A stretch of 64,000 nucleotides of DNA from Candidatus Hydrogenedens sp. GTDB taxonomy: Bacteria > Hydrogenedentota > Hydrogenedentia > Hydrogenedentales > Hydrogenedentaceae. The notes under the pieces were generated by a model that saw only the letters and a list, made by a program, of their open reading frames with translations, made no database searches and was not told the DNA's origin. Made by a program: the position numbers and the translations under genes. Below are positions 11,756 to 58,595 of the stretch, one piece after another. Location of the stretch: positions 190,013-254,012 of the forward strand of contig JBMFRC010000004.1 in the NCBI GenBank assembly GCA_049968235.1, read 5' to 3'. How positions within the stretch are numbered: position 1 is the first letter of the stretch; each line of letters opens with the position of its first letter.

Positions 11756-11757
11756 TT

Positions 11758-11764
11758 AAGGAGG
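11758..11764 (+). promoter_or_regulatory. Shine-Dalgarno AAGGAGG, 7 nt upstream of the ATG at 11772.
   Basis: Read directly from the sequence. Shows that SD-dependent initiation is used in this genome. Confidence 0.7.
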
Positions 11765-11771
11765 TATAACT

Positions 11772-12845: not shown

Positions 12846-12846
12846 A

Positions 12847-26109: not shown

Positions 26110-27799
26110 AATTATTCAAAAACAGGTAATCCAGTCCTGACTCTATAAATGTCTGTAAGGCTTCTTCTGGAGTCCGAACAATGGGTGATTCATGCATATT
26201 GAAACTTGTATTCAGTATTACACTGGTTCCTGTTAATTCCTTATAATTTTTTAATATTTTATAAAAAGTCGGATTATTTTCTTTTTTTACAAGTTGGGCT
26301 CGCGTTGTTCCATCTATATGTACAACGGCACCATGTTGTTCTTTCATCTTTTGTGTACTTCGAAAACAGCATGTCATAAATTCACCTGCATGCCTTGCTT
26401 TTTCATATCCTATCAAAAACTGTTCCGCGTCCTCATATAAAAGAGCCGGAGCAAAAGGCATAAAATCACTTCGTTTTAACATAATGTTTAACTTTCCTGT
26501 TATATCCCGCATTGTAGAATCACATAAGATAGAACGATTACCTAAAGCACGTGGTCCCCATTCCATTTTATCATAAAATCGTGCAATAATTTTTTTATGA
26601 TAAAGACTTTCTGCTATAAATTGAAATATTTTTGTATCATCAAATTCCTGAAATGGAAGATTATATTTAAGTATTGCTGATTTAATTTCTTCGTTACTAA
26701 AACAATCTCCCCAAAATGCGTGCGGGAGGGGCTGGGGATTGAAATGGAATTGCGAACATATAGCCCCCAGGCTCAGTCCCCCATCTCCCATGTTTGGATA
26801 TACAAATAATTCTTCGACTTCTGGTAATTCATGTATTTTTTGATTTAGCAACACATTAGCAAATACTCCTCCTGCAACGGCTACCTTATTAAGTCCTGTT
26901 TTCTTTAGCCAATATTGAATTAAAGAACCAATTGTCTGTTCTAAGATATTTTGTGACCATGCACATAAATCCTCTCTTGAATATTTTTGTAATAATTGCA
27001 AAAGCCAGTCTCTTAATTTTTTACCATGAGGACCTTTGTATAAGAGAAGATTTTCATTCCATGAAAATGGGTTTTCATCTTTAATTTTGGATGCATCTCC
27101 ATGGGCAGAAAGTCCCGTAAGTTTTCCTTCATCTCTACAAGGAACAAAGCCTAATACCTCTGTTAAATTTTCAAAAAATAGGCCAAAAGAACTTTTAGCA
27201 GAGGATTTCCATAACCTTGTTATAATATTTCCATGTCCTTGAGAAACAGTTAAGGATAGTCCATCCCCCATTCCATCTGCAGTAACAATAAGTGCATTAT
27301 CATACCCCGAACAGAAATAACTTCCCCATGCATGGGCTTCGTGATGCTCAATAAAATAAATAGGGATATGAGGAGGAAGAAAGGGTAATCGCTTATGAAT
27401 TATTTTTTTCAAAATGACAGATAATTTTTTTTTCATTCCTTCGGATGGATTCATATAACTAATAGGATTATAAGAAACAGCCCATTCTGTAATATTACTC
27501 CAATATGTTTTACTTTTTTGATTTTTTTCTCGCCTTGAAAGAAATGCTTTTTTTTGTAAATTTGGGAATAAGCGAAAAAATGGGAATGGGGTTACAAATC
27601 CAGAGACACATACTCCTTCTATATCTTTCCAGGTTAAACCTGTTTGTTTTAAGGCATTTTCTAACGATAGGTATGGAAAGCCTCCCTCATTTTTTCTTTG
27701 TGTGTATCGTTCCTCGTTGGACATAAATAAAATTTTATCATCATCACAAAGAGTAACACCCGCGTCAAAAAAATCTTCACTAATTCCCAATATAATCAT
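26054..27799 (-). CDS. Carbamoyltransferase (NodU/CmcH/TobZ family O-carbamoyltransferase).
   Basis: N-terminal ILGISEDFFDAGVTLCDDDKILFMSNEERYTQRKNEGGFPY. Metal-binding IEHHEAHAWGSY. YrdC/Kae1-like architecture across 581 aa. Confidence 0.85.
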   Translation of the reverse strand: MIILGISEDFFDAGVTLCDDDKILFMSNEERYTQRKNEGGFPYLSLENALKQTGLTWKDIEGVCVSGFVTPFPFFRLFPNLQKKAFLSRREKNQKSKTYWSNITEWAVSYNPISYMNPSEGMKKKLSVILKKIIHKRLPFLPPHIPIYFIEHHEAHAWGSYFCSGYDNALIVTADGMGDGLSLTVSQGHGNIITRLWKSSAKSSFGLFFENLTEVLGFVPCRDEGKLTGLSAHGDASKIKDENPFSWNENLLLYKGPHGKKLRDWLLQLLQKYSREDLCAWSQNILEQTIGSLIQYWLKKTGLNKVAVAGGVFANVLLNQKIHELPEVEELFVYPNMGDGGLSLGAICSQFHFNPQPLPHAFWGDCFSNEEIKSAILKYNLPFQEFDDTKIFQFIAESLYHKKIIARFYDKMEWGPRALGNRSILCDSTMRDITGKLNIMLKRSDFMPFAPALLYEDAEQFLIGYEKARHAGEFMTCCFRSTQKMKEQHGAVVHIDGTTRAQLVKKENNPTFYKILKNYKELTGTSVILNTSFNMHESPIVRTPEEALQTFIESGLDYLFLNNFVVAQNKDSFRGNENISR

Positions 27800-27829
27800 G
27801 AATAATCAATCCTTTGAATTGAAAACAAT

Positions 27830-28816
27830 TTATATCCATAGAGCATTCCAGATTGCAGAAGGATTTAAATTCCATATTAAAGCAAGTTCTACTATCGGTG
27901 CACACCAACAGGTTGCACAACCTATAGGAACTGTTAATTGTTTTATTGACTTCTCGAAATTTTTTTCTGTTTCTTTTTTCTGTTTATACAGTTTTCGTGT
28001 TCCAAACAAGTGGCAGGAAAGTATCGTTCCATCCGGTTCTATTGTATATGTTAACCGACCTGCACAACACCATATTTTCGTGGGATGAGGCCAGTTGCTT
28101 AAATATTTTAAGCCTGCAAATGAATTGCGTACAGGTGCCCCCTGTTTTTTATTTTTTATAATGTACTGTATCGTATCAAAATACTCATCTTTATTAGGAG
28201 CAATTGGATTGGGTTTTAATGATGAATCCAGATGTAGAGTTGCAGGTTGAAACATTACTTTAATATGTTCTTCCTGAGCCTTTTGCAAAACATAATCTAT
28301 TGTTTTTATATTTAGTTTTGAAATTACACATAAAAAAGATGTAGATATATTTTTCATTTTGCAATATTTTACAACCTCAAATAAATGTTTGTAGGTCCCT
28401 TTACCTCGGATTTCATCATGTATCTCTTCGGGACCATCAAAACTTAAATTAATATGGTCAATATACTTCTCAATTCCGTCATGTTTTTCTATGTTTACCC
28501 CCGTAGAACTTAAAAAAATGTTCAATCCAAGTGATTTTGAATGTTGCAAAATTGTCATTATATCTTTTTTAATTAATGGTTCTCCTCCACCAAATGTAAT
28601 CCATCTTACACCTGATTTGTATAAGATTGTTAATCTTTCTATAATTTCTTCCGTATCTAACTCATTTATAGAAACTTCACGAGAACCACAGTAAAGGCAC
28701 TGATAAGGACAACGAAAAGTTAAATTCCATTCTACAAACAATGGTGCATTTATCCCTAATATTTTTGTTTTTATCCATGATTTTAAGAGTGCAGGGACGT
28801 TTTTTATTTTCTTCAT
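27830..28816 (-). CDS. Radical SAM enzyme with a C-terminal SPASM/twitch-type auxiliary Cys cluster domain.
   Basis: FRCPYQCLYCGS (CX3CX2C). C-terminal CCAGR...SCHLF...GCATCWCAP cysteine-rich region typical of SPASM domains. Confidence 0.8.
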   Translation of the reverse strand: MKKIKNVPALLKSWIKTKILGINAPLFVEWNLTFRCPYQCLYCGSREVSINELDTEEIIERLTILYKSGVRWITFGGGEPLIKKDIMTILQHSKSLGLNIFLSSTGVNIEKHDGIEKYIDHINLSFDGPEEIHDEIRGKGTYKHLFEVVKYCKMKNISTSFLCVISKLNIKTIDYVLQKAQEEHIKVMFQPATLHLDSSLKPNPIAPNKDEYFDTIQYIIKNKKQGAPVRNSFAGLKYLSNWPHPTKIWCCAGRLTYTIEPDGTILSCHLFGTRKLYKQKKETEKNFEKSIKQLTVPIGCATCWCAPIVELALIWNLNPSAIWNALWI

Positions 28817-29745
28817 TGAATACTTTCTTCCAAATGAATCTTTTTATATAATTTCAATCGAAATAGTGCTAACCAACCTACGGGAATCCATATCCAGAAT
28901 GTAATTATACGAAACAGTCCTATAACAAGGATTATTTCTGGCAACTGAACCTTAAGCCAGTGCAGAGAAATACTCATTGTTGTTTCAACAATCCCAATTC
29001 CTCCGGGGATTCCGCTACATATTGCGAGGAAGAGATTTCCCAACACAATCATTTCTGCTTGAGTTAAATATATTCCTGATTCTTTTCCTCCTAACAATAA
29101 ATAAAAAATAAGACCGTTAACAGCCCAACCTATTGAACAACCTATGCAAAATATGATGAGGAATAAAGGATGTGATAAATCATCTGCCAGTGATATTTTG
29201 AATTTTGATAACAAGGGCTTTGACATTTTAATGAATAAAGGGAACATAATTAATATTAAAAGTGAAAGAATTATCGGCAGGAGAAAAGTATTCGCATAAA
29301 ATCCTAAGGACATAATTATTATTAAAAATGCTCCTTCAAAAACACATAATAAAAATAGAAATTCTAAAGACATTGCCTTTGAGAGGGAAATATCTGTTGT
29401 TTTTGTAATTATATATCCTCTTAAAGCCCTTCCTAACTGTGCGGGCAATATAATTCCTGCTCCAGAACTCAGGTAAATCCAAACTGACTTCATTATAGGA
29501 ACATTTGCAGAATACTTTTTGAGCATACATCTCCATAAATAATAATCCAATATCCAGTCTAACAACCGTAAAGAACATGCAAACAGGAACAATCGCCATC
29601 TATTTATAATTAAATTCTTTATATCTGTAAGATTCTCTTCTCTTATCTGATAAATTCCAAAACAAGTTATTACAAAAAGAAGAACAAAACCAGATATATG
29701 TAGTAAATTTAATATTTTGTCTTTATTTTTTATAAAATTAAACAT
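28813..29745 (-). CDS. Polytopic membrane protein, flippase-like (UPF0104 / LPG-synthase-TM-region family-like).
   Basis: About 8 TM helices. Gly-rich segments (GIPGGIGIVETT). ATGA overlap with the downstream rSAM/SPASM gene. Confidence 0.5.
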   Translation of the reverse strand: MFNFIKNKDKILNLLHISGFVLLFVITCFGIYQIREENLTDIKNLIINRWRLFLFACSLRLLDWILDYYLWRCMLKKYSANVPIMKSVWIYLSSGAGIILPAQLGRALRGYIITKTTDISLSKAMSLEFLFLLCVFEGAFLIIIMSLGFYANTFLLPIILSLLILIMFPLFIKMSKPLLSKFKISLADDLSHPLFLIIFCIGCSIGWAVNGLIFYLLLGGKESGIYLTQAEMIVLGNLFLAICSGIPGGIGIVETTMSISLHWLKVQLPEIILVIGLFRIITFWIWIPVGWLALFRLKLYKKIHLEESIQ

Positions 29746-29769
29746 TAGTTAAATTATTTTAATTTAGGA

Positions 29770-30966
29770 TTGTATATGATACCACGACGATGGATACATA
29801 TTTTACCTGCTGAATATAACGAAGTTCTAAATCCTTCCCCGGAAGTACTATCCAATTACGATATTATTTCCCGATGGGAAAATGAGTTCCGTTCTTTTAT
29901 AGGTTCTCCAAATGCTGTTTCTTTGCCCTCTGGAAGAGTTGGACTAAAACTTATATTACAACATTTGAATCTTAAAGAGAATGACGAAATAATTATTCCT
30001 GCACTCACATTGAAAGCACTGGTAAGTATTATAACATCATCAGGACTAAAACCTGTTTGTGCAGATATAAACCCTAAAACATTAAATATAGACCCTGAAT
30101 CGGTTCAGAATTTAATTTCACCCCGAACAAAAGCTATAATCGCTTTACATACTTTTGGGAATCCTTGCTTAATTGAAAAAATATGCAAAATAGGTCAGGA
30201 AAATAATATCCCTGTTATTGAAGATACTGCTCATGCTTGTGGTGCCAGAATTCAGAATCAATTTGCGGGGACATTCGGATATGCTGGTTTTTTTAGTTTT
30301 GATATATCCAAGCCCGTAAATACATACGGGGGTGGAATGGTTACCAGTGAAGATTCGTCACTTATTGACTTCATTCGAGAATACAATAAAAAACTTATTA
30401 TAGATACAGTTGAAATAACCAGGAAAGCAAAGTCTATTAAGTTAGAACAGACGTTATATAACATAAAACTCATGTATCCTATTCTTTATTTAAGACTGTT
30501 CCGACCCTTTTTTAAGTCCCTTGAGTTTGTATACCGTAAAATTCAAAGTGTCCCTCCCGAGAATGTTCAGTTTACACCTCTACAAGCAAGTATAGGCATA
30601 GAAAAATTACCTTTCTTAAGTTCAAAAGTAGAACAAAGAAATGAAGTGGCACAATTATATCGTAAGTTATTATCTGATAAAATTAATATTCCTTATGTAA
30701 GACCTGATTGTATACCTTCTTATTACATGTTTGTTGTTATTCTTCCTAAAAAATCTCATAATATCTGTTCTTCCCTTCTTTTTCGTGGTATTGATACTGC
30801 ATTTGAGGAAGAAATAATTGATGATGTTTCTCTAATAATTGAAAAATCACATTGTCCAAACGCTAATAAGGTATACCCAAATTTGTTAGCCTTACCTTTC
30901 TATGATGGTATTTCACAAGATACTATTGAATATATCTGTAATTGTTTAAATAAACTTGTGGAATAA
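29770..30966 (+). CDS. DegT/DnrJ/EryC1/StrS family PLP-dependent sugar aminotransferase/dehydratase.
   Basis: Conserved FSFDISKP PLP-lysine region, plus ALHTFGNP and EDTAHACGA motifs. The true start may be the MIPRRW Met at about 29776. Confidence 0.85.
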   Translation: MYMIPRRWIHILPAEYNEVLNPSPEVLSNYDIISRWENEFRSFIGSPNAVSLPSGRVGLKLILQHLNLKENDEIIIPALTLKALVSIITSSGLKPVCADINPKTLNIDPESVQNLISPRTKAIIALHTFGNPCLIEKICKIGQENNIPVIEDTAHACGARIQNQFAGTFGYAGFFSFDISKPVNTYGGGMVTSEDSSLIDFIREYNKKLIIDTVEITRKAKSIKLEQTLYNIKLMYPILYLRLFRPFFKSLEFVYRKIQSVPPENVQFTPLQASIGIEKLPFLSSKVEQRNEVAQLYRKLLSDKINIPYVRPDCIPSYYMFVVILPKKSHNICSSLLFRGIDTAFEEEIIDDVSLIIEKSHCPNANKVYPNLLALPFYDGISQDTIEYICNCLNKLVE

Positions 30967-49300: not shown

Positions 49301-49576
49301 TGCCATCCCCATATTTTCCGAAGCAACGGTAGTATATCGTTTAATTCCTTCCACAGTATCCAGTGATTCTTCAATTTTACGACAGATGCCTTCCTCAACT
49401 TCTTCAGGGTCTGCACCGGGATAAATTACCTGCACTGTTATCATATCTAAAGAAAATTCAGGGAACAACTCTCTTCGAATTAATAAGAGAGAAATTATTC
49501 CCCCAATTAGGATAACTGCAGTCAGTATATTTGCAAAAACACGGTTTCCAACAAAATACCCTAAGAACTGATTCAT
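46364..49576 (-). CDS. RND family efflux transporter (AcrB/HAE1-type), inner membrane subunit.
   Basis: 1070 aa. 12-TM pseudo-twofold architecture with two large periplasmic loops and typical AcrB N-terminus (…FVGNRVFANILTAVILIGG). Confidence 0.9.
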   Translation of the reverse strand: MNQFLGYFVGNRVFANILTAVILIGGIISLLLIRRELFPEFSLDMITVQVIYPGADPEEVEEGICRKIEESLDTVEGIKRYTTVASENMGMANIEVMDSYDLSKVYDKVRNAIDSISTFPKDAEKPITNEVTIRREVIQVALSGNLPDKILKEWAEQIKDELQALPELSQVFIFGAKQYEIGIEISEEKLQKLGLTFSQVASAIRSGNLNISGGLIRSKGAEIRIRTIGRKYYADELAKIVVLAKPTGEVITLDQVAEIRDDFNEDPLEADFNGEKSVLISCFKTQEEDDIAISDAVHKYVEAKQKQLPPGVKISVWNDSARLIRARLNLLEMNGVQGLVIVILMLLLLMDARLSFFVTLGIPISFAGAISIMYIHGDTINMMSLFGLIMVLGMLVDDAIVIGEAIYYHRQRGLPPMKAALTGVEEVGLPVIGAVTTTIAAFIPLMFVSGIMGKFIRILPIVVISALSVSLFESLFLLPAHLNDLPDLSHTISNSDNRKHPLKKLRWFFSDSLDAFVDKIYLPFLNAMLRHRYISLTASIAILLTIMGLVRGQIIKFEVFTEADGDYLMAQVEFPSGTPFHVTKDAVKRMESALKRLVEKTTTISGEPLVQNVYSVVGQSSSGFSAQGGSNVGEIRVELLPTERRGIHAKKLSSMWAKETGTIPGTLKQKYDVSGGGPRGTGIELWLRSENLQDLIRASQEIKEKLKTYDGVYQIEDDYRPAKIEARFYLKPEAQTLGITLDSLGRQLAGGFFGEEAVRIQRGRDDIRIRVRYPREDRSYLSILNQVRIRTNQGYEVPLFAVADVDYTPGFSSITRVDGMRRVVVTADIETTKANSTEIIGDLTSNFLPLLQRKYPGLIWSFEGPQQNSSDALSSLKVGFPIALLLIFLIISSIFHSYSQPLLIMLTIPFGVVGALIGHLLFGQTVTLMSLFGIVALSGVVVNDAIVFVDCFNANLGEGNSFISSILQAGKRRFRAIFLTSVTTFGGLISLLFTRDMQAQFLKPMAVSLAIGLVFATSVTLLFIPAIIGVLNDIRRLAYTIRNRRIPKPEEVEPVFSMLEQKQQLENSSL

Positions 49577-50922
49577 GAAACAGATTCCTTATCTCCCGAT
49601 TTCTGGATTTCTAATAGTGAATTTTCTATTGGATTAATCAAACGCGTTGTAACAACAACAGTTCCTGGATTAAGACCACTCACAATAACTTCATCACCTT
49701 GAATATATAATCTTTCCACCTGAACCGATTTCAATCGGTCATTCTCTGCGGTATATACTGTCCCTTCAAAACTTACAGCGGTGTCCGGTAACCGATATAC
49801 ACTTGATAATGTTTTGCCCGGAATTTTTACCTGACAGAACATACCCTGAACCAGTGGCATTTTATCATCAGACACCGAAAAAATATTTTCCTTTTCAATA
49901 CGAACAACTGCATAAATAGTCCTGGTTTTCTCGTCATATCTTTCGACACGATGTAGTAACCCTTTCCATTTATGATTTTCTTTATCTTCTGTCCATAGAA
50001 TTTCACATTCTTTAGGCTCTAATGGTGGAAACCATGCAGAATCAATATTTATATTATCCTTTTGAAATGGAAGCCACTGTGTTGCCTGTTTCGCATCTAA
50101 AGGGACGGATATTTCCAGAATGGAATCATCTGAAAGTGTCATTACAACAGAACCAGGGGTTACATATTGTCCTGCTTCAAGATTCACTGTTTTAATCCGT
50201 GCATTAAAAGAAACCTTTACCTGGGTTCGCGATAAATTTATTTCTGCCTGAGATAACTGAGATTCTGCATTTTTCACTGCTTCCTCTGATTCCCTGACTC
50301 GTAAAGGATACAAATCGATAGATTGAACTAATAAATTATAAGCGTCTAATGCTTGATTATATGCCCGTTCCGTTTGCTCAACATTGGATTGCGTACCTAC
50401 TTTATCTCGTTCAAATAACTGTTTCACTCGTTGGAATTCTGAATAAGCAAGATCTTTAGTACGCTCTAATGTTTTAAGCCGTTCTTTATCGGAGGCAAAC
50501 TGTTCTTGTGTTCTTTTCAATGCCTGCTTTGCCTGTTCCAAACTTGCCTGCGCAGATTTTAGTCGAACTTGATAATCACTGGGGTCTATTTCAAATAAGA
50601 CTTCCCCGGCAGGGATAACCTCACCGGCTTCCAATCTTGGATGAATACGAATAACACGCCCTGATACTTCCGGCGCTATAGGGACCGTTGCTAAGGTTCG
50701 AACTTCTCCAAATCCATTTAATATAATCGGAACATTTTCCGGTTGCACCTGAATTACATCAACAGGGATGGGACGTTCTTCCTGTTCTGCTTGTGCTGGA
50801 GGTTTACGAAAGGAAGAAAAGAAAACAAAAGAAATTATTCCCAACAGCAAAATTAGAATAGCGATTACAAATGAGAATAATTTTGCAAATGTAATATATT
50901 TTTTTACTTCTTCGTTACTCAT
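49573..50922 (-). CDS. RND efflux periplasmic adaptor (membrane fusion protein, HlyD/AcrA family).
   Basis: N-terminal TM anchor, long coiled-coil hairpin, beta-barrel C-terminus. ATGA overlap with the RND gene. Confidence 0.85.
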   Translation of the reverse strand: MSNEEVKKYITFAKLFSFVIAILILLLGIISFVFFSSFRKPPAQAEQEERPIPVDVIQVQPENVPIILNGFGEVRTLATVPIAPEVSGRVIRIHPRLEAGEVIPAGEVLFEIDPSDYQVRLKSAQASLEQAKQALKRTQEQFASDKERLKTLERTKDLAYSEFQRVKQLFERDKVGTQSNVEQTERAYNQALDAYNLLVQSIDLYPLRVRESEEAVKNAESQLSQAEINLSRTQVKVSFNARIKTVNLEAGQYVTPGSVVMTLSDDSILEISVPLDAKQATQWLPFQKDNINIDSAWFPPLEPKECEILWTEDKENHKWKGLLHRVERYDEKTRTIYAVVRIEKENIFSVSDDKMPLVQGMFCQVKIPGKTLSSVYRLPDTAVSFEGTVYTAENDRLKSVQVERLYIQGDEVIVSGLNPGTVVVTTRLINPIENSLLEIQKSGDKESVS

Positions 50923-50936
50923 AAAACTTCCTCACT

Positions 50937-51410
50937 TTATTTATTGTTATTCTGAACAGACATTAAGTATTCTCTTATCTTTTTATAAACATCAACCCAT
51001 TGGGAGGATGTTTCATCACCTAAACCTTTTAATAATTCACCTATACCTTTTAACACTTGATTTTCATGCCATTTCATAGATTCACTGGCTTCCGGACTTA
51101 ACCTTATTTGAATTTCTCGACGGTCCTCAGATGACTGCTCACGAACTACCAGTCCCAATTCTACCAATCGGTCCAACATGAGACTTGCCGCAGAAGGGGA
51201 TACATTAAGATATTCCGACAATTCTTTTAAGTTTAAAGGCTCAAAGTTTTTTATCGTCATTAACATATGAAACTGGGGCATAGTAAGGTTATGCTCGAAC
51301 TTTAATTTTTCCTTTTCAGGGGAACAGCAATGAAACCGGCTATGTATCCATTTCTGAATCATTTGAATTGTTTTTAATATCTCATAGGCTGACTGTTCAT
51401 ATCGTTCCAT
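50937..51410 (-). CDS. MarR family transcriptional regulator.
   Basis: Winged HTH LTMPQFHMLMTIKNF...LSEYLNVSPSAASLMLDRLVELGLV. Confidence 0.8.
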   Translation of the reverse strand: MERYEQSAYEILKTIQMIQKWIHSRFHCCSPEKEKLKFEHNLTMPQFHMLMTIKNFEPLNLKELSEYLNVSPSAASLMLDRLVELGLVVREQSSEDRREIQIRLSPEASESMKWHENQVLKGIGELLKGLGDETSSQWVDVYKKIREYLMSVQNNNK

Positions 51411-51449
51411 TATGCATCTCCAACAATTTGTGTAATGCTATCTCTATCT

Positions 51450-51827
51450 TTATATTTTTTTCTTAACTACTTCAATAATTTCATGGACTAATTCGTCCGT
51501 AACAACTGTTTTCCCTTTTTCAACACCTAAATCTGTTATCACAATATGTTCAAATGGTATTTGTCTCTTCTCAAATATTTTCTTCCCACAGGAAACAGGA
51601 CAACCATCTATTACTACATTCCTATCTGCTCCCAAAGCAGATTGGATAAAACCTGAAGAATCAGAGGCTACTCCAGAAAGGCATGAACCACGACATACCT
51701 TCTCTTTTACTAAATTTCTCATAACCCGGTCTGCAATCAGGCCTGTGTTAGCAATACCTGAACATGCGTAAACAAGAATAGTGCCTTTTTCATCAGAACA
51801 ATTACATTGTATAAAATCAATTCCTTT
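51450..51827 (-). CDS. DGC-domain (putative metal-binding) small protein. The ORF track reports 51450..51722, but the conserved N-terminal Cys segment extends upstream with no canonical start codon.
   Basis: The VIDGCPVSCGKK DGC motif lies in the annotated part. Upstream and in frame: ...GIDFIQCNCSDEKGTILVYACSGIANTGLIADRV(M)RNL..., open to about 51827. Confidence 0.5.
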   Translation of the reverse strand, partial: KGIDFIQCNCSDEKGTILVYACSGIANTGLIADRVMRNLVKEKVCRGSCLSGVASDSSGFIQSALGADRNVVIDGCPVSCGKKIFEKRQIPFEHIVITDLGVEKGKTVVTDELVHEIIEVVKKKI

Positions 51828-52001: not shown

Positions 52002-52985
52002 TTGATTAAGATGACTACATTAATAAAATGTGAACTTTGTCCTCGTTATTGCATTCTTGAAGATGGTCAAAAGGGGGAGTGTCGTATTCGCATAAATATA
52101 GAGGGGAAACTTTATACTGTTACTTATGGGCATCCTTGTTCTATTCACATTGACCCTGTTGAAAAAAAACCTCTATATCATTTTTTACCGGGGACACCTA
52201 TCCTATCCCTTGCTACGGTAGGTTGTAATCTTCATTGCAAAAATTGCCAAAATTGGGAAATATCTCAGACAGAACCATACCAATTAGTAACGGAATATGT
52301 AGAACCTGATAAAATTTCCGATCTGGCTGTTCAGTATCATTGTCCTTCCATCGCTTATACCTATACGGAACCACTGGCTTATTATGAATACACTTACGAG
52401 TGCTGTAAAATATCTATTGAAAAAGAATTAAAAAATGTTCTTGTAACTGCGGGATATATTAATGAAGAACCTTACAAACGATTACTACCTTTTATCCATT
52501 CTGCAAACATAGATTTAAAAGGCTTTTCGGAGGAATTTTACAGAACTGTATGCGATGGAACGCTAAAACCTGTATTAAGAACACTGGAATTAACTAAAAA
52601 TGCAGGGGTTGAATTAGAGGTTACAAATTTAGTCATTCCAACATTAAATGATAAAGATGAAGACCTAAAAAAACTTTGTGAATGGGTCGCACATAATTTG
52701 GGGAAAGATACACCGTTGCATTTTTCCCAATTTTATCCACGATATAAAATGACACATTTACCTCCAACACCATTAGAGACTCTTCTAAAAGCACGTCAAA
52801 TTGCTTTAAATGAAGGTTTACAATTTGTATATATCGGTAATATTATTCACAGAGAAAGTTCAAATACCTATTGTCCTTCCTGTAAAACTTTACTTGTTGA
52901 GCGATATGGTTTTAGTGTGCTTCAAAATAATATTTCACAGGGGAAATGTCCCAAATGTAACACGGAGATATATGGAGTATGGTAA
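52002..52985 (+). CDS. AmmeMemoRadiSam system radical SAM enzyme.
   Basis: Family-specific N-terminal Cys motif CELCPRYCILEDGQKGECRIR, followed by ...EKKPLYHF...GCNLHCKNCQNWEISQ (CX3CX2C). Confidence 0.85.
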   Translation: MIKMTTLIKCELCPRYCILEDGQKGECRIRINIEGKLYTVTYGHPCSIHIDPVEKKPLYHFLPGTPILSLATVGCNLHCKNCQNWEISQTEPYQLVTEYVEPDKISDLAVQYHCPSIAYTYTEPLAYYEYTYECCKISIEKELKNVLVTAGYINEEPYKRLLPFIHSANIDLKGFSEEFYRTVCDGTLKPVLRTLELTKNAGVELEVTNLVIPTLNDKDEDLKKLCEWVAHNLGKDTPLHFSQFYPRYKMTHLPPTPLETLLKARQIALNEGLQFVYIGNIIHRESSNTYCPSCKTLLVERYGFSVLQNNISQGKCPKCNTEIYGVW

Positions 52986-53198
52986 TAAATAGACGAAGAT
53001 TTTTATCATATATTTTAACTGCTGTAATTACGAAACAGGGTATTAAAAAACCCTCATTAATCCGGCAAACTTACGCAATACCTCTTTACAATAAGGAACT
53101 TTCTAAATATAATAAGAAAAGTATTTTTTCGTCCAAACCTTCACCATGGATGGGTTAAAATTTAATATAATAAAACAGAATAAATAAGGGGATATTTA

Positions 53199-54734
53199 AT
53201 GAAATATTATTATTTTATTATTTTGTTCTTTCTATTCATTGTTGTTATTCCATTTGCATGTGGTGATAATTCTAATTCGGATAAGGAAAAAGAAATGCAG
53301 TTACCAAAAGTTTATAAATCATTAATAGCAGGTCAATGGTATGATGCATCTCCCGAGAAACTTAGACAGCAAATTTCGGAGATGTTTAATAATGCTAATG
53401 TAGAATCCGCAGGAAATGTGATAGGGCTTATATTACCTCATGCGGGTTATACATACTCAGGATTAACTGCATGTAAAGGAATTAAAACAACGGAAAAATC
53501 TTTACACTCAAGAATAATTATATTAGGGACAAGTCACAGAGCACCTTTAGAGAATATAGTAAGTGTTCCATCTGTGGATTTTTATGAAACTCCATTAGGA
53601 CAAATACCTCTTGACGTGGATACTATTCAAGAATTAAAAAAATTCCCATATTTTAAGGAAGTTCCTTTAGCACAACAGGGAGAGCATAGCGTTGAAATTG
53701 AACTGCCATTGTTACAATACTTAAAAAAAGATTTTAAATTAATCCCTTTAATTTGTGGACGATTGGATATTGAAACGACAGAAAAAATAGCCCGGATATT
53801 ACAAAATTACATAGATGAAAAAACATTGGTTATTGCCAGTAGCGATTTTACTCATTACGGACACAATTACAATTATGTCCCTTTTAGTGAGAATATTCCG
53901 GAAAATATTAAAGAATTAGATATGGGAGCATATCAATATATAGAGAAACGAGATGTGAAGGGATTTTATGAATATATCAAAAGAACAGAAATTACTATTT
54001 GTGGTCCGTATGGGATTGGAGTTTTGATGTATCTATTACCCGAAAATACTCAAACAAAACTTTTAGAATATAAACAATCCGGTGAAATTGTAAATGATTA
54101 TCAGAATTCTGTAAGTTATTTCAGTATTGTTTTTACCGGGACATGTGAAAAGAAAGAAAGGACTCCTATGAATAGTTCAACGACATTAACATCTGAAGAG
54201 AAAAAAGATTTATTAAAATTGGCACGCTGGACACTTGAATATGTGTTAGAACATAACAAATTGCCTGCGGATAACGAAATACCTATTAAAATAACAGAAA
54301 CAATGAAAACGCCACGCGCCGCATTTGTTACATTAAAAATAAATGATGATTTACGAGGTTGTATCGGTGAAATTTTTGCAACGAAATCTATGTATAGGTC
54401 GGTTCTTCAGAATGCATATAATGCAGGCTTTAAAGACCCCCGATTTTATCCTATTACAAAGGATGAACTACCTAAGATTAAAATTGATATATCCCTTCTA
54501 ACACATCCCAAAAAAATAAATCATTATACCGAGATTGAATTAGGCAAACATGGAATTATTCTAAAAAAAGGGTATAACCAGGCTTTATTCCTACCACAGG
54601 TAGCCCCGGAACAGAATTGGAATTTACAGCAAACTCTGGAACATCTGTCTATGAAAGCGGGTTTACCGCCGGATGGATATAAAGAAGGTGCTGAATTTGA
54701 AGTTTTTGAAGCAGAGGTATTCCACGAAGAGTAA
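53199..54734 (+). CDS. Fusion of a Memo-like domain (AmmeMemoRadiSam protein B) and an AMMECR1 domain (protein A), with an N-terminal signal peptide or lipoprotein-like leader.
   Basis: Memo motifs AGQWY, PHAGYTYSG, GTSH, SSDFTHYG. AMMECR1 motif LRGCIGE in the C-terminal half. Leader MKYYYFIILFFLFIVVIPFACGDNSNSDKEKE. AAGGGGA SD before the first ATG. An alternative internal start (MQLPKV, about 53295) would remove the leader. Confidence 0.8.
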   Translation: MKYYYFIILFFLFIVVIPFACGDNSNSDKEKEMQLPKVYKSLIAGQWYDASPEKLRQQISEMFNNANVESAGNVIGLILPHAGYTYSGLTACKGIKTTEKSLHSRIIILGTSHRAPLENIVSVPSVDFYETPLGQIPLDVDTIQELKKFPYFKEVPLAQQGEHSVEIELPLLQYLKKDFKLIPLICGRLDIETTEKIARILQNYIDEKTLVIASSDFTHYGHNYNYVPFSENIPENIKELDMGAYQYIEKRDVKGFYEYIKRTEITICGPYGIGVLMYLLPENTQTKLLEYKQSGEIVNDYQNSVSYFSIVFTGTCEKKERTPMNSSTTLTSEEKKDLLKLARWTLEYVLEHNKLPADNEIPIKITETMKTPRAAFVTLKINDDLRGCIGEIFATKSMYRSVLQNAYNAGFKDPRFYPITKDELPKIKIDISLLTHPKKINHYTEIELGKHGIILKKGYNQALFLPQVAPEQNWNLQQTLEHLSMKAGLPPDGYKEGAEFEVFEAEVFHEE

Positions 54735-54736
54735 TT

Positions 54737-57700
54737 GTGAAGAAATATTTTTTACCCATTGCATTAGGTTTCTTTTCAATCACAGCACAAGCATTGCTTG
54801 TGCGTGATTTTCTACATTGTATCGAAGAAAATGAACTTTCATTAGGTATTCTTTATTTTTTCTGGTTCTTGTGGATTATCCCCGGTTCTCTTGTGGGAAA
54901 ACTTTTATATAAATATTCCCATCTTTTTCCTGTTATCTCCCTTTTTTATATTCCATCATGGCTATGGGGACACTTTTTGGTTCGTAATTCGCGAGATATC
55001 TCAGGCATCGCTACCTATGAACTTTTTGACATTCATTCTCTTTTTTTATACTCCGCAATAGCACCTGCAGGAATAAGTTTTCTTACAGGATTTTTATTTA
55101 CCCATTGTTCCTTATGGTGGCAGGATAATTTTACATATGGAGAAAGCAATTCCAAACCTTCGACGGTAGTTCGTTATGTATATGCTTATGAGGCTTTCGG
55201 CGCAGTATTAGGTGGAATTACTACTTCATTTAGTATTTACCTCGGATTTTCCCATTGGATACCTTTTTGTATTTCCGTAGGATTCCTAATTATTTCCTCT
55301 CTTTTATTATTGGACTATCCATTTTTGAAAAAGGCATTTCTTATCATTCTTCTCCCCTTACTCCTGCTATCAGCATTCCTGCTGGAAACATGGGAAAATA
55401 AATCTTTGTGGGAATATATTACAAAAAATGAAAATTTTAAGGGAAAAATAATTACCCAAAAGGGAGAATATTTATATGGATATGATACCAACCAATTTAT
55501 ACTTTTAAGAAATCTCAAACCTACATTAAGGTTTCCAAATCAAGAATATGGCTTACAGTTACTATCTACTTTTATTGCTCAGAAAAACGATGCTACAAAC
55601 ATTTTACTCATTGGAGAGCCTTTCGTTTATACATTACCTTATCTAATAAATATTAAGAGCATCGAAAAAATTTTATGGATACCTTTTGATTTTGAATTAT
55701 CTACAAAAATTATTTCACTATTGCCTGAAAATTCCCTATTCAATAATAAAAAACTCATTTTCCCGCATAATGAACCTCGTTCTTTTTTGAAAAGCACTAA
55801 TGACAAGTTTGACATTATTCTTGTTTATACGGATAACCCACAAACTATTTCTTCTAATCAATACTTAACAGATAGTTTTTTTAGTTTACTCAAAATTCAC
55901 CTTACAGATAAAGGCATGGCAGGGATTCGAATGTCGGGAGGAGAAAATTTTTTAGGTGGAGAAATATCAGCACTTGGTTCGTCTATATATTTTACTTTCC
56001 AACAGGTATTCAAAGTTAACGCACTAAAACCCGGTGAAGAAACCTGGTTATTTGGCTCTTTGAATTACCCTATAAGTGAACATGTGCCGACCCTTGAACA
56101 ACGATTGTCTAACATATCAGAACAAATCCCGGAAATCAAACCCGGTATCGTAAGAGATCTATATCCCGCTGATAGAATTATTTTTCAAAAAAATCGCTAC
56201 GAGGAAATTAAGAAATTTATCCGTGAAGATTATTTGATTAATACGGAAGACAAATATCTCGGTTTTCTGTATAGCAATCTTTTTTATCTCTGGAAGCAGG
56301 GCTATTCGGGACTGTTAGATAAAATTGATATTATTAAGCAAATTACTCTTTTCCTTTTATTTTCATCTCCTTTATGCTTCTTATTAGCACGCTGGATATA
56401 CAAAAGGAAGTCAATCCGAAAAGGGAAAGAAAAAATTTTTGCTACTACTTTAGAAACATATTTCGCTATTCTTGCTATTGGGACCATTGGCATGGGAATT
56501 TCTATTCTTCTACTTATACAATTTCAATACTGTTATGGAACACTCTCAACTTATATTGGTCTCTTATCATCAATGTTTATGCTGGGACTTTCAACAAGTC
56601 CCATTACCTTTAATTCATTGTATGCGGATAAAAATCATAAGCAATCGTTTTTTGTTGTTTTCTCTCTTTTTTCTATCTGTGCTATTTATACACTTGCGAT
56701 ACTTTTTGAATTGTCCGTTCATTTTTATACCTACCTCGTTATACTCTTTTTATGGGGGCTTTCGTTAGGCTTTCTTCTCTCCATGTTTCTTAATACATTA
56801 GATAAAGAATCAACTACTTCTCAGATTGCGGTAAATTTAGAGATATGGGACCACCTTGGAGCAGGGCTAGGGGCTTTTATATTTCCAATTATTCTACTCC
56901 CTCTGTTCGGATTGCAGTTTTCTGTCGGATTTATTCTCTTATCTCTGCTACTGGTTCTTTTATTTATACCTCTTCTTCAAACAATTCCTGTCTGTAAGTC
57001 TTCATCGTGGGGAAGAGTTTACGGCTATACCTTATTCCCCATCCTTGTATTATGTTTTATCTCTACGGAGATATATCATCGTTCCACAGTTCCCTTACCA
57101 GGAGATGCATTTACAAAAATTGCTCAAGAATTATCTGATGGTGGAAAACTTCAACTTGAAACAATAACGCTTCCTGATAATAGACAACTCCGTTATTATA
57201 CAGTTACAAAAAAAGATGAAAATCAGAATAAAAATATCTCATATATTTTTTCTACTGCTTCATTATTTAAGGTAATTGGATATGGTGGGGAAATGGATAT
57301 CGCCGTTAAGGTATCTCGGGAAGGAAATATTGAAAACATTAAAGTTATTCAATCCAATGAAACCCCTGATTATTTGTCCCGGGTTGAAGATTACTTCTTT
57401 TTATATAAAGGGAAAAATATATTTCAGCCTGAAAGTATCTCGGAAATAGATAGTGTAAGTGGAGCAACAACAACCGCTGATGCTGTGAAGCGTGCTGTCC
57501 AATTTGCGGGAAAAGAATTTGCACAAATTATCCAGAGCAACAACATAACTCAAACAAAAACATCGTTCAATTATGATTTTTCTGCCCCAACGACATACTC
57601 CATATATATCTTCCTCTTATTTATTCTTCTGGCTATAATTTTTCGATTTTTCCATAGTGACTTACTACGGACATTATGGTTAATCTGTGTAGTATTGATT

Positions 57701-58294
57701 TTAGGTTTCTGGCTAAATATCCAATATGGTCTATATTTTATCGTTCAACTTTTATATGTGGATAAGTTACAATTTCATTTAAATGTCCCAACCCTTTTAA
57801 TTATTGGTATTCCTGTGCTCATTTTAATAAACGGCAATATTTATTGTGGGTATTTATGTCCATTTGGAGCGTTGTCCGAACTAATAAGCAAACTGGATTG
57901 GATAAACAAAAAAATAATCCCAACAAAACAAACATGGTATATAACCCGACAGTTTAAATACATTCTTGCTTTTGTATTTTTCTCTACATATTTTTTTAAG
58001 AGAGAAGTAAAAATGATAGATATTGACCCTTTGCTTTCCTTTTTTACTCTGGATATATCAAACTATATAACAATATTTGGAATTTGTGTTTTATTGGCAA
58101 GTTTTTTATATAACCGTTTTTGGTGTAGGGTACTTTGTCCCACAGGTGCTTTTTTAAGTTTAATTCAATCTCTTCGAATATTTTCATTTTTCTGGCAAAA
58201 AACTTTCCCTACACATTGTGACCTTGGAATATCAAGACCTGAAGAAATAGACTGTATTCAATGTAATCGGTGTTATAAACATGAAAAAAAATGA
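54737..58294 (+). CDS. Giant (1185 aa) polytopic membrane fusion protein. N-terminal TM block, degenerate spermidine-synthase-like (PABS/MTase-fold) segment, second TM block, FMN-binding (FMN_bind) domain, and a NapH/NosR-type TM domain with two CX3CP motifs plus a C-terminal CxxCxxC Fe-S motif.
   Basis: SpeE-like: NILLIGEPFVY...DKFDIILVYTDNPQT...FFSLLKIHLTDKGMAGI. FMN_bind: DSVSGATTTADAVKRAV. CX3CP: CGYLCPFGAL and WCRVLCPTGAF. Terminal HCDLGISRPEEIDCIQCNRC. Starts 2 nt after the Memo-AMMECR1 stop. Confidence 0.6.
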   Translation: MKKYFLPIALGFFSITAQALLVRDFLHCIEENELSLGILYFFWFLWIIPGSLVGKLLYKYSHLFPVISLFYIPSWLWGHFLVRNSRDISGIATYELFDIHSLFLYSAIAPAGISFLTGFLFTHCSLWWQDNFTYGESNSKPSTVVRYVYAYEAFGAVLGGITTSFSIYLGFSHWIPFCISVGFLIISSLLLLDYPFLKKAFLIILLPLLLLSAFLLETWENKSLWEYITKNENFKGKIITQKGEYLYGYDTNQFILLRNLKPTLRFPNQEYGLQLLSTFIAQKNDATNILLIGEPFVYTLPYLINIKSIEKILWIPFDFELSTKIISLLPENSLFNNKKLIFPHNEPRSFLKSTNDKFDIILVYTDNPQTISSNQYLTDSFFSLLKIHLTDKGMAGIRMSGGENFLGGEISALGSSIYFTFQQVFKVNALKPGEETWLFGSLNYPISEHVPTLEQRLSNISEQIPEIKPGIVRDLYPADRIIFQKNRYEEIKKFIREDYLINTEDKYLGFLYSNLFYLWKQGYSGLLDKIDIIKQITLFLLFSSPLCFLLARWIYKRKSIRKGKEKIFATTLETYFAILAIGTIGMGISILLLIQFQYCYGTLSTYIGLLSSMFMLGLSTSPITFNSLYADKNHKQSFFVVFSLFSICAIYTLAILFELSVHFYTYLVILFLWGLSLGFLLSMFLNTLDKESTTSQIAVNLEIWDHLGAGLGAFIFPIILLPLFGLQFSVGFILLSLLLVLLFIPLLQTIPVCKSSSWGRVYGYTLFPILVLCFISTEIYHRSTVPLPGDAFTKIAQELSDGGKLQLETITLPDNRQLRYYTVTKKDENQNKNISYIFSTASLFKVIGYGGEMDIAVKVSREGNIENIKVIQSNETPDYLSRVEDYFFLYKGKNIFQPESISEIDSVSGATTTADAVKRAVQFAGKEFAQIIQSNNITQTKTSFNYDFSAPTTYSIYIFLLFILLAIIFRFFHSDLLRTLWLICVVLILGFWLNIQYGLYFIVQLLYVDKLQFHLNVPTLLIIGIPVLILINGNIYCGYLCPFGALSELISKLDWINKKIIPTKQTWYITRQFKYILAFVFFSTYFFKREVKMIDIDPLLSFFTLDISNYITIFGICVLLASFLYNRFWCRVLCPTGAFLSLIQSLRIFSFFWQKTFPTHCDLGISRPEEIDCIQCNRCYKHEKK

Positions 58295-58595
58295 TTTTAT
58301 TTTTTTTACCGTTTCATTACTTTATGTTATTGCCTTTTTTGTCATTTTTATCTATCATATTCTACCTGAAAAATTACCAACAGAATTATCTTATATACAA
58401 ACAGAAGGGGATTCTATAAAACCGACAGGAACTGCAACGGATATTGAAAAAATTAAAAGCATGATACAAAACAATCAACTTTCTGATAAGGAAGCGTTGT
58501 TTTACAAAAAATTGCAGGAAGAGGGAAAAAAAAATCCTCAAAAACATCAACAAATCCGTAATCGTTGGAGACGAGGTAAACAAAGAGATAATTAG
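58281..58595 (+). CDS. Small membrane-anchored hypothetical protein (single N-terminal TM, Lys/Gln-rich tail).
   Basis: FFTVSLLYVIAFFVIFIYHIL TM segment. Overlaps the giant ORF by 14 nt. Confidence 0.4.
   Translation: MKKNDFIFFTVSLLYVIAFFVIFIYHILPEKLPTELSYIQTEGDSIKPTGTATDIEKIKSMIQNNQLSDKEALFYKKLQEEGKKNPQKHQQIRNRWRRGKQRDN

Follow-up and report, generated by a model that had tools for sequence, protein, structure and literature searches.

A conserved membrane protein that joins an MFS-fold core, a SpeE-fold domain and a NosR/PceC/NapH-type module and is encoded with AmmeMemoRadiSam genes

The window analyzed here, a stretch of 64,000 nucleotides from Candidatus Hydrogenedens sp., contains an open reading frame (54737-58294, + strand) for a protein of 1185 aa. 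This large protein is a conserved single polypeptide composed of a 12-helix core with the MFS fold, an inserted SpeE-fold domain and a NosR/PceC/NapH-type module. Its gene is translationally coupled after genes for a radical SAM enzyme, a peptide of about 60 aa and a Memo-AMMECR1 fusion (Table 1). The AmmeMemoRadiSam triad (TIGR04337, TIGR04336, and TIGR04335) is encoded directly upstream, with all three families passing their curated cutoffs, and the large protein is an added component outside these defining families. Since its gene is nearly always beside the radical SAM, Memo and AMMECR1 genes, it might pass electrons through the membrane to an exported form of this system. We hold, with moderate confidence, that it is dedicated to an extracytoplasmic variant of the AmmeMemoRadiSam system, in which it would be the membrane subunit that conducts electrons and acts as a scaffold.

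Distribution and architecture of the large protein

An earlier note made from the sequence alone had described the protein as an unprecedented domain fusion. The open reading frame and all the motifs in that note were confirmed, but the fusion is not unprecedented in the databases, since full-length orthologues (25-82% identity) with all domains conserved were found in at least 80 independent species genomes. A relative was present in 224 species genomes. Nearly all of the best 80 loci matched across the whole length, and the best 150 representatives of 50%-identity clusters all scored above 700 bits, most of them matching nearly full length. The hosts are mainly Hydrogenedentota, Planctomycetota, Lentisphaerota, Verrucomicrobiota, and Nitrospirota. 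Family members are already in NCBI and JGI under the generic names "4Fe-4S binding protein" or "spermidine synthase," and our literature search found no description of the fusion protein or its gene context. The MFS fold, the conserved operon and the split-off C-terminal module in the next open reading frame go beyond the earlier note.

The note had also raised an assembly chimera or a frameshift artefact joining two genes, which can be dismissed: the whole end-to-end architecture recurs in more than 80 independent assemblies, conservation is even over all domains (83 sequences), base composition is uniform, and nothing was found in favor of an artefact, the sole junction-like feature being a stretch of eight A at the 3' end, at the start of the next open reading frame. 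Across these eight A, the 104-aa open reading frame overlaps the stop of the large one by 14 nt. The tail that it encodes, a TM helix plus a motif, forms the C-terminus of the large protein itself in 65 of 83 orthologues, whereas 12, the window included, have it as an open reading frame of its own; this 3' split, common to loci of different assemblies, also argues against an artefact.

Table 1. Features of the operon and of the large protein (aa numbers refer to the large protein)
Feature	Position	Strand	Basis or remark
AmmeMemoRadiSam-system radical SAM enzyme, 327 aa, CNLHCKNC cluster motif, without export signal	52002..52985	+	TIGR04337 386.7 bits vs cutoff 220
59-aa peptide, MVINRRRFLSYILTAVIT...SKPSPWMG	52979..53158	+	Twin-arginine-type leader, ~12-residue hydrophobic region, basic body, C-terminal W-x-G
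Memo-AMMECR1 fusion, 511 aa, N-terminal signal or lipobox-like leader MKYYYFIILFFLFIVVIPFAC/GDNS	53199..54734	+	Pfam Memo 6e-61, AMMECR1 3e-50
MFS-fold N-half, TM1-6, aa 1-190	54737..55306	+	Invariant R23, E152, G155, G159
Extra helix TM7, aa 195-229, chain out of MFS central loop to the outside	55319..55423	+	Positive-inside analysis, 83 orthologues
SpeE-fold domain, aa 230-526, predicted extracytoplasmic	55424..56314	+	N-terminal beta-hairpin part and Rossmann part
Extra helix TM8, aa 527-555, back to cytoplasm, then K/R-rich loop aa 556-570	56315..56401	+	Positive-inside analysis
MFS-fold C-half, TM9-14, aa 571-746	56447..56974	+	PRK03612 (NCBIfam) membrane region matches aa 574-741
TM15, aa 757-783, out towards FMN domain	57005..57085	+	Topology analysis
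FMN_bind domain, aa 790-935, predicted extracytoplasmic	57104..57541	+	Pfam FMN_bind 5.6e-14
NapH/NosR-type membrane module, TM16-20, aa 953-1152	57593..58192	+	Fer4_5 match, two stretches
C-terminal 4-Cys motif, C1161-x11-C1173-x2-C1176-x2-C1179, predicted cytoplasmic	58217..58273	+	Conserved cysteines
Split-off C-terminal module, 104 aa, one TM helix and outside motif ...TDIEKIKSMIQNNQLSDKEALFYKK	58281..58595	+	HMM from fused tails, E 2e-13

The large protein is predicted to span the inner membrane with about 20 helices (21 counting the split-off open reading frame). The SpeE-fold domain sits within the central loop of the MFS core and is entered and left through the extra helix pair. In the positive-inside analysis of 83 orthologues, K+R in short loops came to 20.9 inside vs 5.2 outside. 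We infer that the N-terminus and every Cys motif are inside, and that the SpeE-like and FMN domains, whose relative orientation the earlier note had left to a structure prediction, are both extracytoplasmic. The FMN_bind domain of PceC is reportedly also outside. This topology agrees with the universal N-in/C-in layout of MFS proteins and with the published placement of FMN_bind outside the cytoplasm in NapH-like proteins (PMC8238504). The MFS assignment comes solely from structural comparison, in which the membrane core is closest to organic-cation transporters; neither TM block gave a match in Pfam. D705-H706 is conserved in the C-half and is the equivalent of E152 in the N-half. A single TM helix at 694-746 was rejected because an internal repeat pairs this segment with TM5 and TM6.

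The earlier note had called the inserted domain SpeE-like and probably non-catalytic, and both parts of the call are supported. Homology to SpeE is clear at the profile level (E 1e-14), and the window protein falls below the cutoffs of Pfam PF01564 (17 bits vs 22.9) and TIGR00417 (18.8 bits vs 249.55). The GGGxG loop is degenerate (G293-E-P-F-V), as it is in several further lineages. In the D-x-x-D-P box, which is Y364-T-D-N-P in the window protein and N-L-P-D in most orthologues, the catalytic first Asp is replaced by Tyr and Asn, respectively, and it is absent in nearly all members. D318, E346, and D359 are retained in the window protein, and all orthologues keep the ribose/adenine-contacting acids D318 and D/E346, most of them with a GxG loop. 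A functional spermidine synthase was rejected for the window protein, because it has neither an intact cofactor loop nor the catalytic Asp and its SpeE-like domain is placed outside by the topology prediction. The note was right to link this half to "fused MFS/spermidine synthase" proteins: relatives of ~700-740 aa consist of that half alone, and two of them (P0016 and P0017) scored 50.6 and 64.9 bits on NF037959 (cutoff 40). The distant full-length orthologue P0015, which has a strong Spermine_synth match with a GGG loop, scored 65.9. The window protein scored 12.9 and does not pass; the MFS-fold membrane domain and the SpeE-fold domain, as in NF037959, are both present in it.

The remaining motifs of the note, an FMN_bind domain with a flavinylated-type Thr, two CX3CP motifs and a C-terminal Cys cluster, were borne out, and together with five helices they form the NosR/PceC/NapH-type module. 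Besides its Pfam match, the FMN_bind domain matches RnfG structures at 1e-11. The SGAT threonine of its flavinylation motif (D-S-V-S-G-A-T) is T911 at nt 57467-57469, and D-x-x-[ST]-G-A-T is retained in 82 of 83 orthologues. Fer4_5 (Pfam, 1.7e-12) matches in two stretches. The CX3CP motifs (C1037/C1041/P1042 and C1130/C1134/P1135) are predicted to be on the cytoplasmic side, and C1037, C1041, P1042, C1130, and C1134 are at least 97% conserved. The four C-terminal cysteines (C1161, C1173, C1176, and C1179) do not vary among 15 sequences, show at least 97% conservation among 83, and are a candidate site for a single [4Fe-4S] cluster. NosR and NapH have two ferredoxin-type CxxCxxCxxxCP motifs at the C-terminus. 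These are absent from the C-terminus of the large protein, which has no CP-terminated motif and instead carries the one group C-x11-CxxCxxC. The cutoffs of NosR (NF046105, 45.9 bits vs 1000) and NapH (TIGR02163, 42.7 bits vs 213) were also missed, and both matches are limited to aa 969-1161. With a single 4-Cys group and scores so far below these cutoffs, cofactor content and electron input are uncertain. A true NosR or NapH orthologue was rejected on family scores, Cys motifs and gene context; no nos, pce, nap, nirS, or exaA gene was seen near the large gene. ApbE adjoins the orthologue at two loci of one lineage (L088 and L089), and none was found among the 10 window open reading frames scanned.

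Gene neighborhood

The Memo-AMMECR1 fusion scored 228.2 bits on TIGR04336 (cutoff 26) and 166 on TIGR04335 (cutoff 99), and the solved structures nearest to it are MEMO1 (1e-38) and archaeal AMMECR1 proteins. A PDB sequence search with the radical SAM enzyme gave no match. The ATG of the peptide gene overlaps the radical SAM stop (ATGGTAA), and the gene junctions in the window are of 7 nt and 2 nt.

Gene context was counted at the 63 orthologous loci with enough flank. A radical SAM gene on the same strand lies upstream of the large gene at 61 of them, the peptide gene at 59, the Memo-AMMECR1 gene at 57, and all three at 55. The radical SAM, Memo-AMMECR1 and large genes are in the same order in four distant loci, and gene order is kept across at least six phyla at ~28% protein identity, with genes that overlap or abut. 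Four of the 63 loci (six among all 85), of the Victivallales/Lentisphaerota type, have no adjacent Memo-AMMECR1 gene, and even there the peptide and radical SAM genes stay with the large gene; at one or two loci the large gene is an orphan. In 71/71 loci Memo and AMMECR1 form one fused protein, which has a hydrophobic leader in 64/64 evaluable copies, with a lipobox-like Cys in 11. Downstream ACD, GATase, HAD, and phosphatase genes were rejected as parts of the system, being syntenic within Hydrogenedentota only.

The peptide is always stand-alone (54-76 aa) and always in the same gene context. In 32 diverse copies R5, R6, F8, A33, W57, and G59 are invariant. The Tat-signal HMMs gave no match to the window peptide; R-R-x-F is invariant in the 32 copies, and the orthologue peptide at locus L001 scored 21.4 on TIGR01409 (cutoff 16.7) and 15.9 on Pfam PF10518 (cutoff 22.7). 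A Tyr-Pro-Gly (YPG) motif is found in most lineages and is absent in the window's own clade. Co-variation between loss of YPG and loss of the SpeE glycine loop was dropped as uninformative, because essentially a single clade accounts for both losses.

Possible roles of the large protein

NapH-like flavinylated proteins are predicted to relay electrons through the membrane, either towards an enzyme outside the cytoplasm or away from it (Meheust et al. 2021, PMC8238504). For the large protein, we model such a conduit on electron transfer from NosR to NosZ and from PceC to PceA. Ferredoxin or quinol would feed electrons in on the cytoplasmic side, through the CX3CP cysteines and a C-terminal Fe-S cluster; on the other face of the membrane they would reach FMN that ApbE has attached covalently to T911, and then the exported Memo-AMMECR1 enzyme, or the flow might be reversed. 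A cationic or amine-type substrate may be bound or delivered, or partners docked, by the MFS core and the SpeE-like domain, which would face outward and is non-catalytic in this organism. Several observations count against this conduit and scaffold role. The radical SAM enzyme has no export signal, and partners on both sides of the membrane need further explanation. The loci without adjacent Memo-AMMECR1, the orphan loci and the lack of ApbE among the 10 scanned open reading frames also count against it.

It is conceivable, though unlikely, that the whole system including the radical SAM enzyme is extracytoplasmic, which would make it the first of its kind. The Tat-leader peptide would carry the folded Fe-S enzyme out by a hitchhiker route, the Fe-S to covalent FMN path would give low-potential electrons as a membrane-tethered flavodoxin surrogate, the MFS core would export S-adenosylmethionine, the Rossmann domain of the SpeE fold would handle an adenosyl compound, and Memo-AMMECR1 would work alongside on an envelope substrate. 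Every component except the radical SAM enzyme indeed has an export or insertion signal of its own, and the one export signal left over is on the tiny peptide whose gene overlaps the radical SAM stop; an unfolded peptide of 35 aa has no obvious need of Tat unless on folded cargo. The persistence of these two genes where Memo-AMMECR1 is not adjacent, the retained D318, D/E346, and mostly GxG residues, and the likeness of the core to organic-cation transporters fit as well. However, our literature search found no Tat-exported radical SAM enzyme and we know of none, the window peptide is below the Tat-signal HMM thresholds, and, with the glycine loop degenerate in this organism as well as in several other lineages, the system cannot depend on adenosyl binding. 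In a weaker form of this reading, the W-x-G peptide may be the substrate, or the precursor of a cofactor, that has long been sought for the Memo/AMMECR1/radical SAM triad.

We also give rather little weight to the peptide being a precursor in which the radical SAM enzyme modifies, inside the cytoplasm, the C-terminal Trp-x-Gly (and Tyr-Pro-Gly). Tat or the MFS core would then export it, and outside it would be completed by AMMECR1 and the dioxygenase-related Memo domain, with the FMN/Fe-S module giving or taking electrons. A small conserved peptide encoded beside a radical SAM gene, never fused to another protein and with W57 and G59 invariant at its extreme C-terminus, is what this would predict, and PQQ, mycofactocin, and the CTQ-bearing subunit of quinohemoprotein amine dehydrogenase are parallels. 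Memo's kinship also fits, as Burroughs et al. are said to have placed it in 2019 in the superfamily of ring-opening extradiol dioxygenases. On the other hand, to our knowledge no precursor peptide has been reported for canonical AmmeMemoRadiSam systems, domain scans of the radical SAM enzyme showed no RRE/PqqD-like peptide-recognition domain, the leader resembles an export signal more than a recognition leader, and YPG is missing in the window's own clade.

It is very unlikely that the large protein works on its own, either as a respiratory or quinol-dehydrogenase-type protein or as a genuine membrane-bound polyamine aminopropyltransferase, and that its place beside the AmmeMemoRadiSam genes has no functional meaning. 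NapH-like flavinylated modules do work with a wide range of oxidoreductases (PMC8238504), the large gene is an orphan at one or two loci, and some orthologues (P0015) retain a strong Spermine_synth match and GGG loop. Against this stand the overlapping or abutting genes in an order kept across at least six phyla at ~28% identity, the loss of the SpeE catalytic Asp in nearly all members and the predicted outside position of the SpeE-like domain, where it would have no access to decarboxylated SAM. Nor were any respiratory reductase genes seen at the loci.

Significance and comparison with known systems

Memo, AMMECR1 and the radical SAM enzyme are a widespread conserved triad without assigned biochemistry, and the human homologues MEMO1 and AMMECR1 are disease-linked. 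Here the triad appears hard-wired to a flavin/Fe-S transmembrane conduit with an MFS fold and gains a conserved peptide. This context suggests that its chemistry consumes or yields electrons and can operate at the outer face of the membrane, where it may act on a cationic or peptide substrate. Memo-AMMECR1 would thus be a new class of partner enzyme for the extracytosolic electron-transfer systems of the flavinylated "NapH-like" type. The "fused MFS/spermidine synthase" family, so far uncharacterised, would gain a first handle from structure and context.

The large protein shares with NosR, PceC and flavinylated "NapH-like" proteins an FMN_bind domain with [ST]GA[ST], here predicted to be extracytoplasmic, followed by a PF12801 multi-helix module, two CX3CP motifs and cysteines on the predicted cytoplasmic side (PMC8238504). 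It differs from NapH-like proteins in the ~780 residues of MFS and SpeE-like scaffold that precede the module and in its proposed partner Memo-AMMECR1, which goes unmentioned in PMC8238504. RnfG and NqrC have a homologous FMN_bind domain with a phosphoester-linked FMN threonine, but they are single-pass subunits of ion-pumping complexes, and genes for partners of the Rnf or Nqr type are absent here. Spermidine synthase (SpeE, PF01564, e.g., Thermus 1uir/3anx) has the GGGxG loop and the catalytic Asp, both lost in the window protein, whose SpeE-like domain is also predicted to be outside the cytoplasm. The layout of a TM block, a SpeE-fold domain and a second TM block is shared with NF037959 and the PRK03612/COG4262 membrane-bound SpeE. 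NF037959-type proteins also share the N-[LV]-P-D-P...NRFYT motif that replaces the SpeE D-x-x-D-P box, but at ~700-740 aa they stop after the second TM block and retain the GGG loop, whereas the large protein continues into FMN_bind, the NapH-like module, the Cys cluster and the tail. Canonical AmmeMemoRadiSam systems, as far as is known, are cytosolic and have three components. The system described here has a single Memo-AMMECR1 protein with an export leader and adds a peptide with a twin-arginine-type leader and a large, putative membrane redox protein.

Architecture and spread of the fusion protein

All of the peptide strings quoted in the earlier note were found within the 1185-aa target protein, and base composition is even along its gene. 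In Pfam, the target matched FMN_bind at aa 848-924 (E 5.6e-14) and Fer4_5 in two stretches (E 1.7e-12), and Spermine_synth at aa 303-394 fell below threshold (17 bits vs 22.9). NCBIfam gave partial matches to RnfG at aa 829-926 and to NosR and NapH at aa 969-1161, and the membrane part of PRK03612, a membrane-bound aminopropyltransferase, matched aa 574-741, the second membrane block of the target. No sequence-level match to Pfam MFS was found in the target. An AlphaFold2 model was built on a 15-sequence alignment (mean pLDDT 80, pTM 0.76). With hhalign, aa 4-184 were homologous to aa 575-739 (93% probability, E 3e-7), and the conserved membrane acid E152 aligned with D705. Judged from this alignment, the repeat is the 6+6 repeat of the MFS fold. 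Between the two halves lie the extra helix TM7, a complete SpeE fold (aa 230-526; Foldseek E 5e-8, TM 0.68, ~290 columns; profile E 1e-14 vs Thermus SpeE) and the second extra helix TM8. The C-terminal half of the MFS core and the helix TM15 are followed by FMN_bind, five helices with two CX3CP motifs, and then C1161-x11-C1173-x2-C1176-x2-C1179. The domains named in the earlier note (FMN_bind, the CX3CP motifs, the SpeE-like part and the terminal cysteines) were assigned correctly; the note was wrong on uniqueness and overlooked the genomic context.

The fusion had been called unprecedented, which does not hold for the databases: of the genomes scanned, one for each species, 224 encode a relative, and nearly all of the best 80 loci aligned end to end. 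The hosts of these 80 loci include Hydrogenedentota, Planctomycetota (Pirellulales, Phycisphaerae, Sedimentisphaerales), Lentisphaerota/Victivallales, Kiritimatiellia and Verrucomicrobiota, and further Nitrospirota, Margulisiibacteriota, Desulfobulbales and some Pseudomonadota bins; the nearest relative is that of Ca. Hydrogenedens terephthalaticus (82%). A word-indexed protein search found full-length homologues at 82% down to 25% identity; their source labels were "4Fe-4S binding protein", "hypothetical protein", "spermidine synthase" and "predicted membrane-bound spermidine synthase". When 1.84 billion cluster representatives were searched exhaustively with a profile, 4665 matched below 1e-30, and every one of the best 150 scored above 700 bits, most with near-full-length alignment. 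Our literature search found no paper describing this fusion architecture. A comparison of 83 full-length orthologues showed even conservation from end to end, reaching at least 97% at each of the eight motif cysteines, at G909-A910-T911 and at a group of residues in the SpeE-like domain; the D-x-x-[ST]-G-A-T motif of FMN_bind is retained in 82 of the 83. Since full-length homologues occur across species and are evenly conserved, the assembly chimera that the earlier note had wished to exclude is ruled out.

An extra TM helix with the motif ...PRDVD...I..MI....LSD.EA.FYKK is fused C-terminally in 65/83 orthologues and is a separate ORF in 12 loci, the window included. An HMM made from the fused tails matched the 104-aa ORF of the window (E 2e-13). 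At the junction (~58278-58294; CATGAAAAAAAATGA) there are eight consecutive A, and one A fewer there would join both frames. The split is real, because a split with its own ATG is common to assemblies at 30-82% identity. One lineage (contigs of ERZ1426840) has two gene calls for the big protein, of 139 aa and 1035 aa; as in the window, there is a 14-nt overlap between its stop and another ORF, here of 77 aa.

Features of the window discussed in the text
Feature	Position	Strand	Remarks
Second radical SAM cluster	24609-30966		second radical SAM gene at 27830-28816 (-)
Divergent genes	49573-51722	-	DGC-domain protein, 90 aa (Pfam DGC 9e-18); by-eye MarR-type regulator (157 aa) and by-eye HlyD-type efflux adaptor (449 aa), beside a 1070-aa ORF
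Peptide ORF, 59 aa	52979-53158	+	ATG overlaps radical SAM stop codon
Target ORF, 1185 aa	54737-58294	+	single uninterrupted ORF, GTG start
Split-off C-terminal module, 104 aa	58281-58595	+	one TM helix and LSDKEALFYKK; 14-nt overlap with target stop
ADP-forming acyl-CoA synthetase-type protein, 723 aa	58678-60849	+	ATP-grasp part N-terminal (ATP-grasp_5, CoA_binding, Succ_CoA_lig)

SpeE-like insert and predicted topology

In the alignment with Thermus SpeE, the GGGEG loop corresponds to G293-E-P-F-V in the window protein and the D-L-T-D-P box to Y-T-D-N-P. Across the family, G293 is the sole invariant residue of the glycine loop, which reads G-S-G-L-G in planctomycetes, and the first (catalytic) box Asp is replaced by Asn in 63/83 orthologues. 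Residues retained in the 83 orthologues are D318, D/E346, D359, N374, R375, N404 and E409. A distant full-length orthologue, P0015, still has the GGG loop and matches Spermine_synth at 75.6 bits, and thus the degenerate state in the clade of the window is derived. With the glycine loop degenerate and the first box Asp lost, the sequence agrees with the earlier suggestion of a non-catalytic part, and we infer that the SpeE-like domain is not a transferase in the window organism.

Topology was predicted by taking helices from the AlphaFold2 model and counting K+R in the loops of the 83 orthologues. Mean positive charge in short loops was 20.9 for "inside" and 5.2 for "outside". The assigned topology also agrees with the strongly basic loop at aa 556-570 after TM8, with the N-in/C-in orientation universal to MFS proteins, and with PceC, whose FMN_bind lies outside. 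FMN_bind is likewise outside in NapH-like proteins (PMC8238504). The prediction therefore puts the SpeE-like and FMN domains together on the outer side of the membrane, a point that the earlier note had asked to be checked, and places the two CX3CP motifs and the four C-terminal cysteines on the cytoplasmic side.

Conserved gene neighbourhood

The target is preceded by two genes, one for an AmmeMemoRadiSam radical SAM enzyme (TIGR04337, 387 bits) and the other for a Memo-AMMECR1 fusion (TIGR04336, 228 bits; TIGR04335, 166 bits), and the GTG of the target begins 2 nt past the Memo-AMMECR1 stop codon. The gene order is the same in the loci of four distant homologues. Clustering of all locus ORFs revealed a conserved ORF of ~60 aa between the two upstream genes. 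Once redundancy was removed, 63 loci had 3.2 kb or more of sequence before the target; the radical SAM gene precedes it in 61 and Memo-AMMECR1 in 57, and both together with the peptide in 55; the peptide ORF is conserved in 59. In four Victivallales/Lentisphaerota-type loci of the 63 (six of 85), the radical SAM gene and peptide are adjacent and Memo-AMMECR1 is not. In L088 and L089, two loci of one such Victivallales lineage, ApbE is convergent to the target and is followed by a multihaem cytochrome-like gene (~11100-14189). The big protein of L018 and L069 has no radical SAM, peptide or Memo-AMMECR1 gene upstream (for L069 the sequence upstream covers just 2.7 kb), and in L063 the radical SAM gene lies downstream on the opposite strand.

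Memo and AMMECR1 were fused in 71/71 cases. A basic-then-hydrophobic leader opens each of the 64 evaluable copies (MKYYYFIILFFLFIVVIPFAC|GD in the window), 11 of which have a lipobox-like Cys, and thus Memo-AMMECR1 is predicted to be exported or anchored outside. The peptide is never fused and occurs always in this gene context. Its invariant residues in 32 diverse copies (R5, R6, F8, A33, W57, G59) form, as read from the alignment, an R-R-x-F twin-arginine-type leader and a W-x-G C-terminus. One orthologue passed the TIGR01409 Tat-signal cutoff; the window peptide had no match to Tat-signal HMMs, and the mature part belongs to no Pfam or NCBIfam family.

The ACD, GATase, HAD and phosphatase genes downstream are syntenic within Hydrogenedentota only, and it is only there that the acyl-CoA synthetase-type gene is conserved beside the system; the MarR-like regulator ORF is syntenic in close relatives only. 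Elsewhere in the window, the second radical SAM gene is clustered with an LPG_synthase_TM-family membrane protein, a carbamoyltransferase, HisF/HisH-like proteins and a DegT-type aminotransferase, an arrangement that resembles a locus for modifying envelope glycans or lipids.

Proposed function and comparison with known systems

The conserved genes constitute a five-gene, predicted-extracytoplasmic AmmeMemoRadiSam module centred on the MFS/SpeE-like/FMN/NapH-like fusion protein. We propose that the C-terminal third would act as a transmembrane electron-transfer module of the NosR/PceC/NapH type, passing electrons from cytoplasmic Fe-S (the four-Cys group, possibly also the CX3CP cysteines) to covalent FMN outside. 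Its client may be the exported Memo-AMMECR1, as NosZ is for NosR, and the MFS core and outward SpeE-like domain might serve to dock partners, or else to bind a cationic or amine-type substrate or deliver it. We hold this model as a whole, an electron conduit serving exported Memo-AMMECR1 with MFS/SpeE-like substrate handling or docking, to be somewhat better than an even bet.

Its main difficulty is that the radical SAM enzyme has no export signal. This would be accounted for if the folded enzyme were exported by hitchhiking on the Tat-leader peptide, with the big protein giving electrons and perhaps SAM. We consider this unlikely; a literature search found no case of a radical SAM enzyme exported by Tat, and several lineages have a degenerate adenosyl-binding loop. 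The missing signal is also addressed if the peptide serves as a precursor, modified at its Trp-x-Gly end before export and then finished outside. We consider this about equally unlikely; no recognition domain was found, and the leader resembles an export signal. It is improbable that the target is an autonomous respiratory protein or a true aminopropyltransferase, given the conserved operon and the lost catalytic residues.

The target was rejected as a NosR/NapH orthologue: scores are far under the cutoffs, no nos/nap genes were seen nearby, and it has a single Cys group, whereas NosR/NapH have two. The electron-conduit model would, by analogy, give it the same mode of action as flavinylated NapH-like systems. 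The "fused MFS/spermidine synthase" family NF037959 is the source of its N-terminal two-thirds; stand-alone members of that family (~700-740 aa) have the same layout and N-[LV]-P-D-P motif. In the PDB, only MEMO1 and "hypothetical" AMMECR1 structures matched the partners, and none matched the radical SAM enzyme. Burroughs et al. (J Biol Chem 2019) reportedly tied Memo contexts to nucleotide-base and isoprenoid modification. The upstream partner genes fall within the family definitions of AmmeMemoRadiSam, and the module sets concrete, testable constraints on this long-uncharacterised conserved system.
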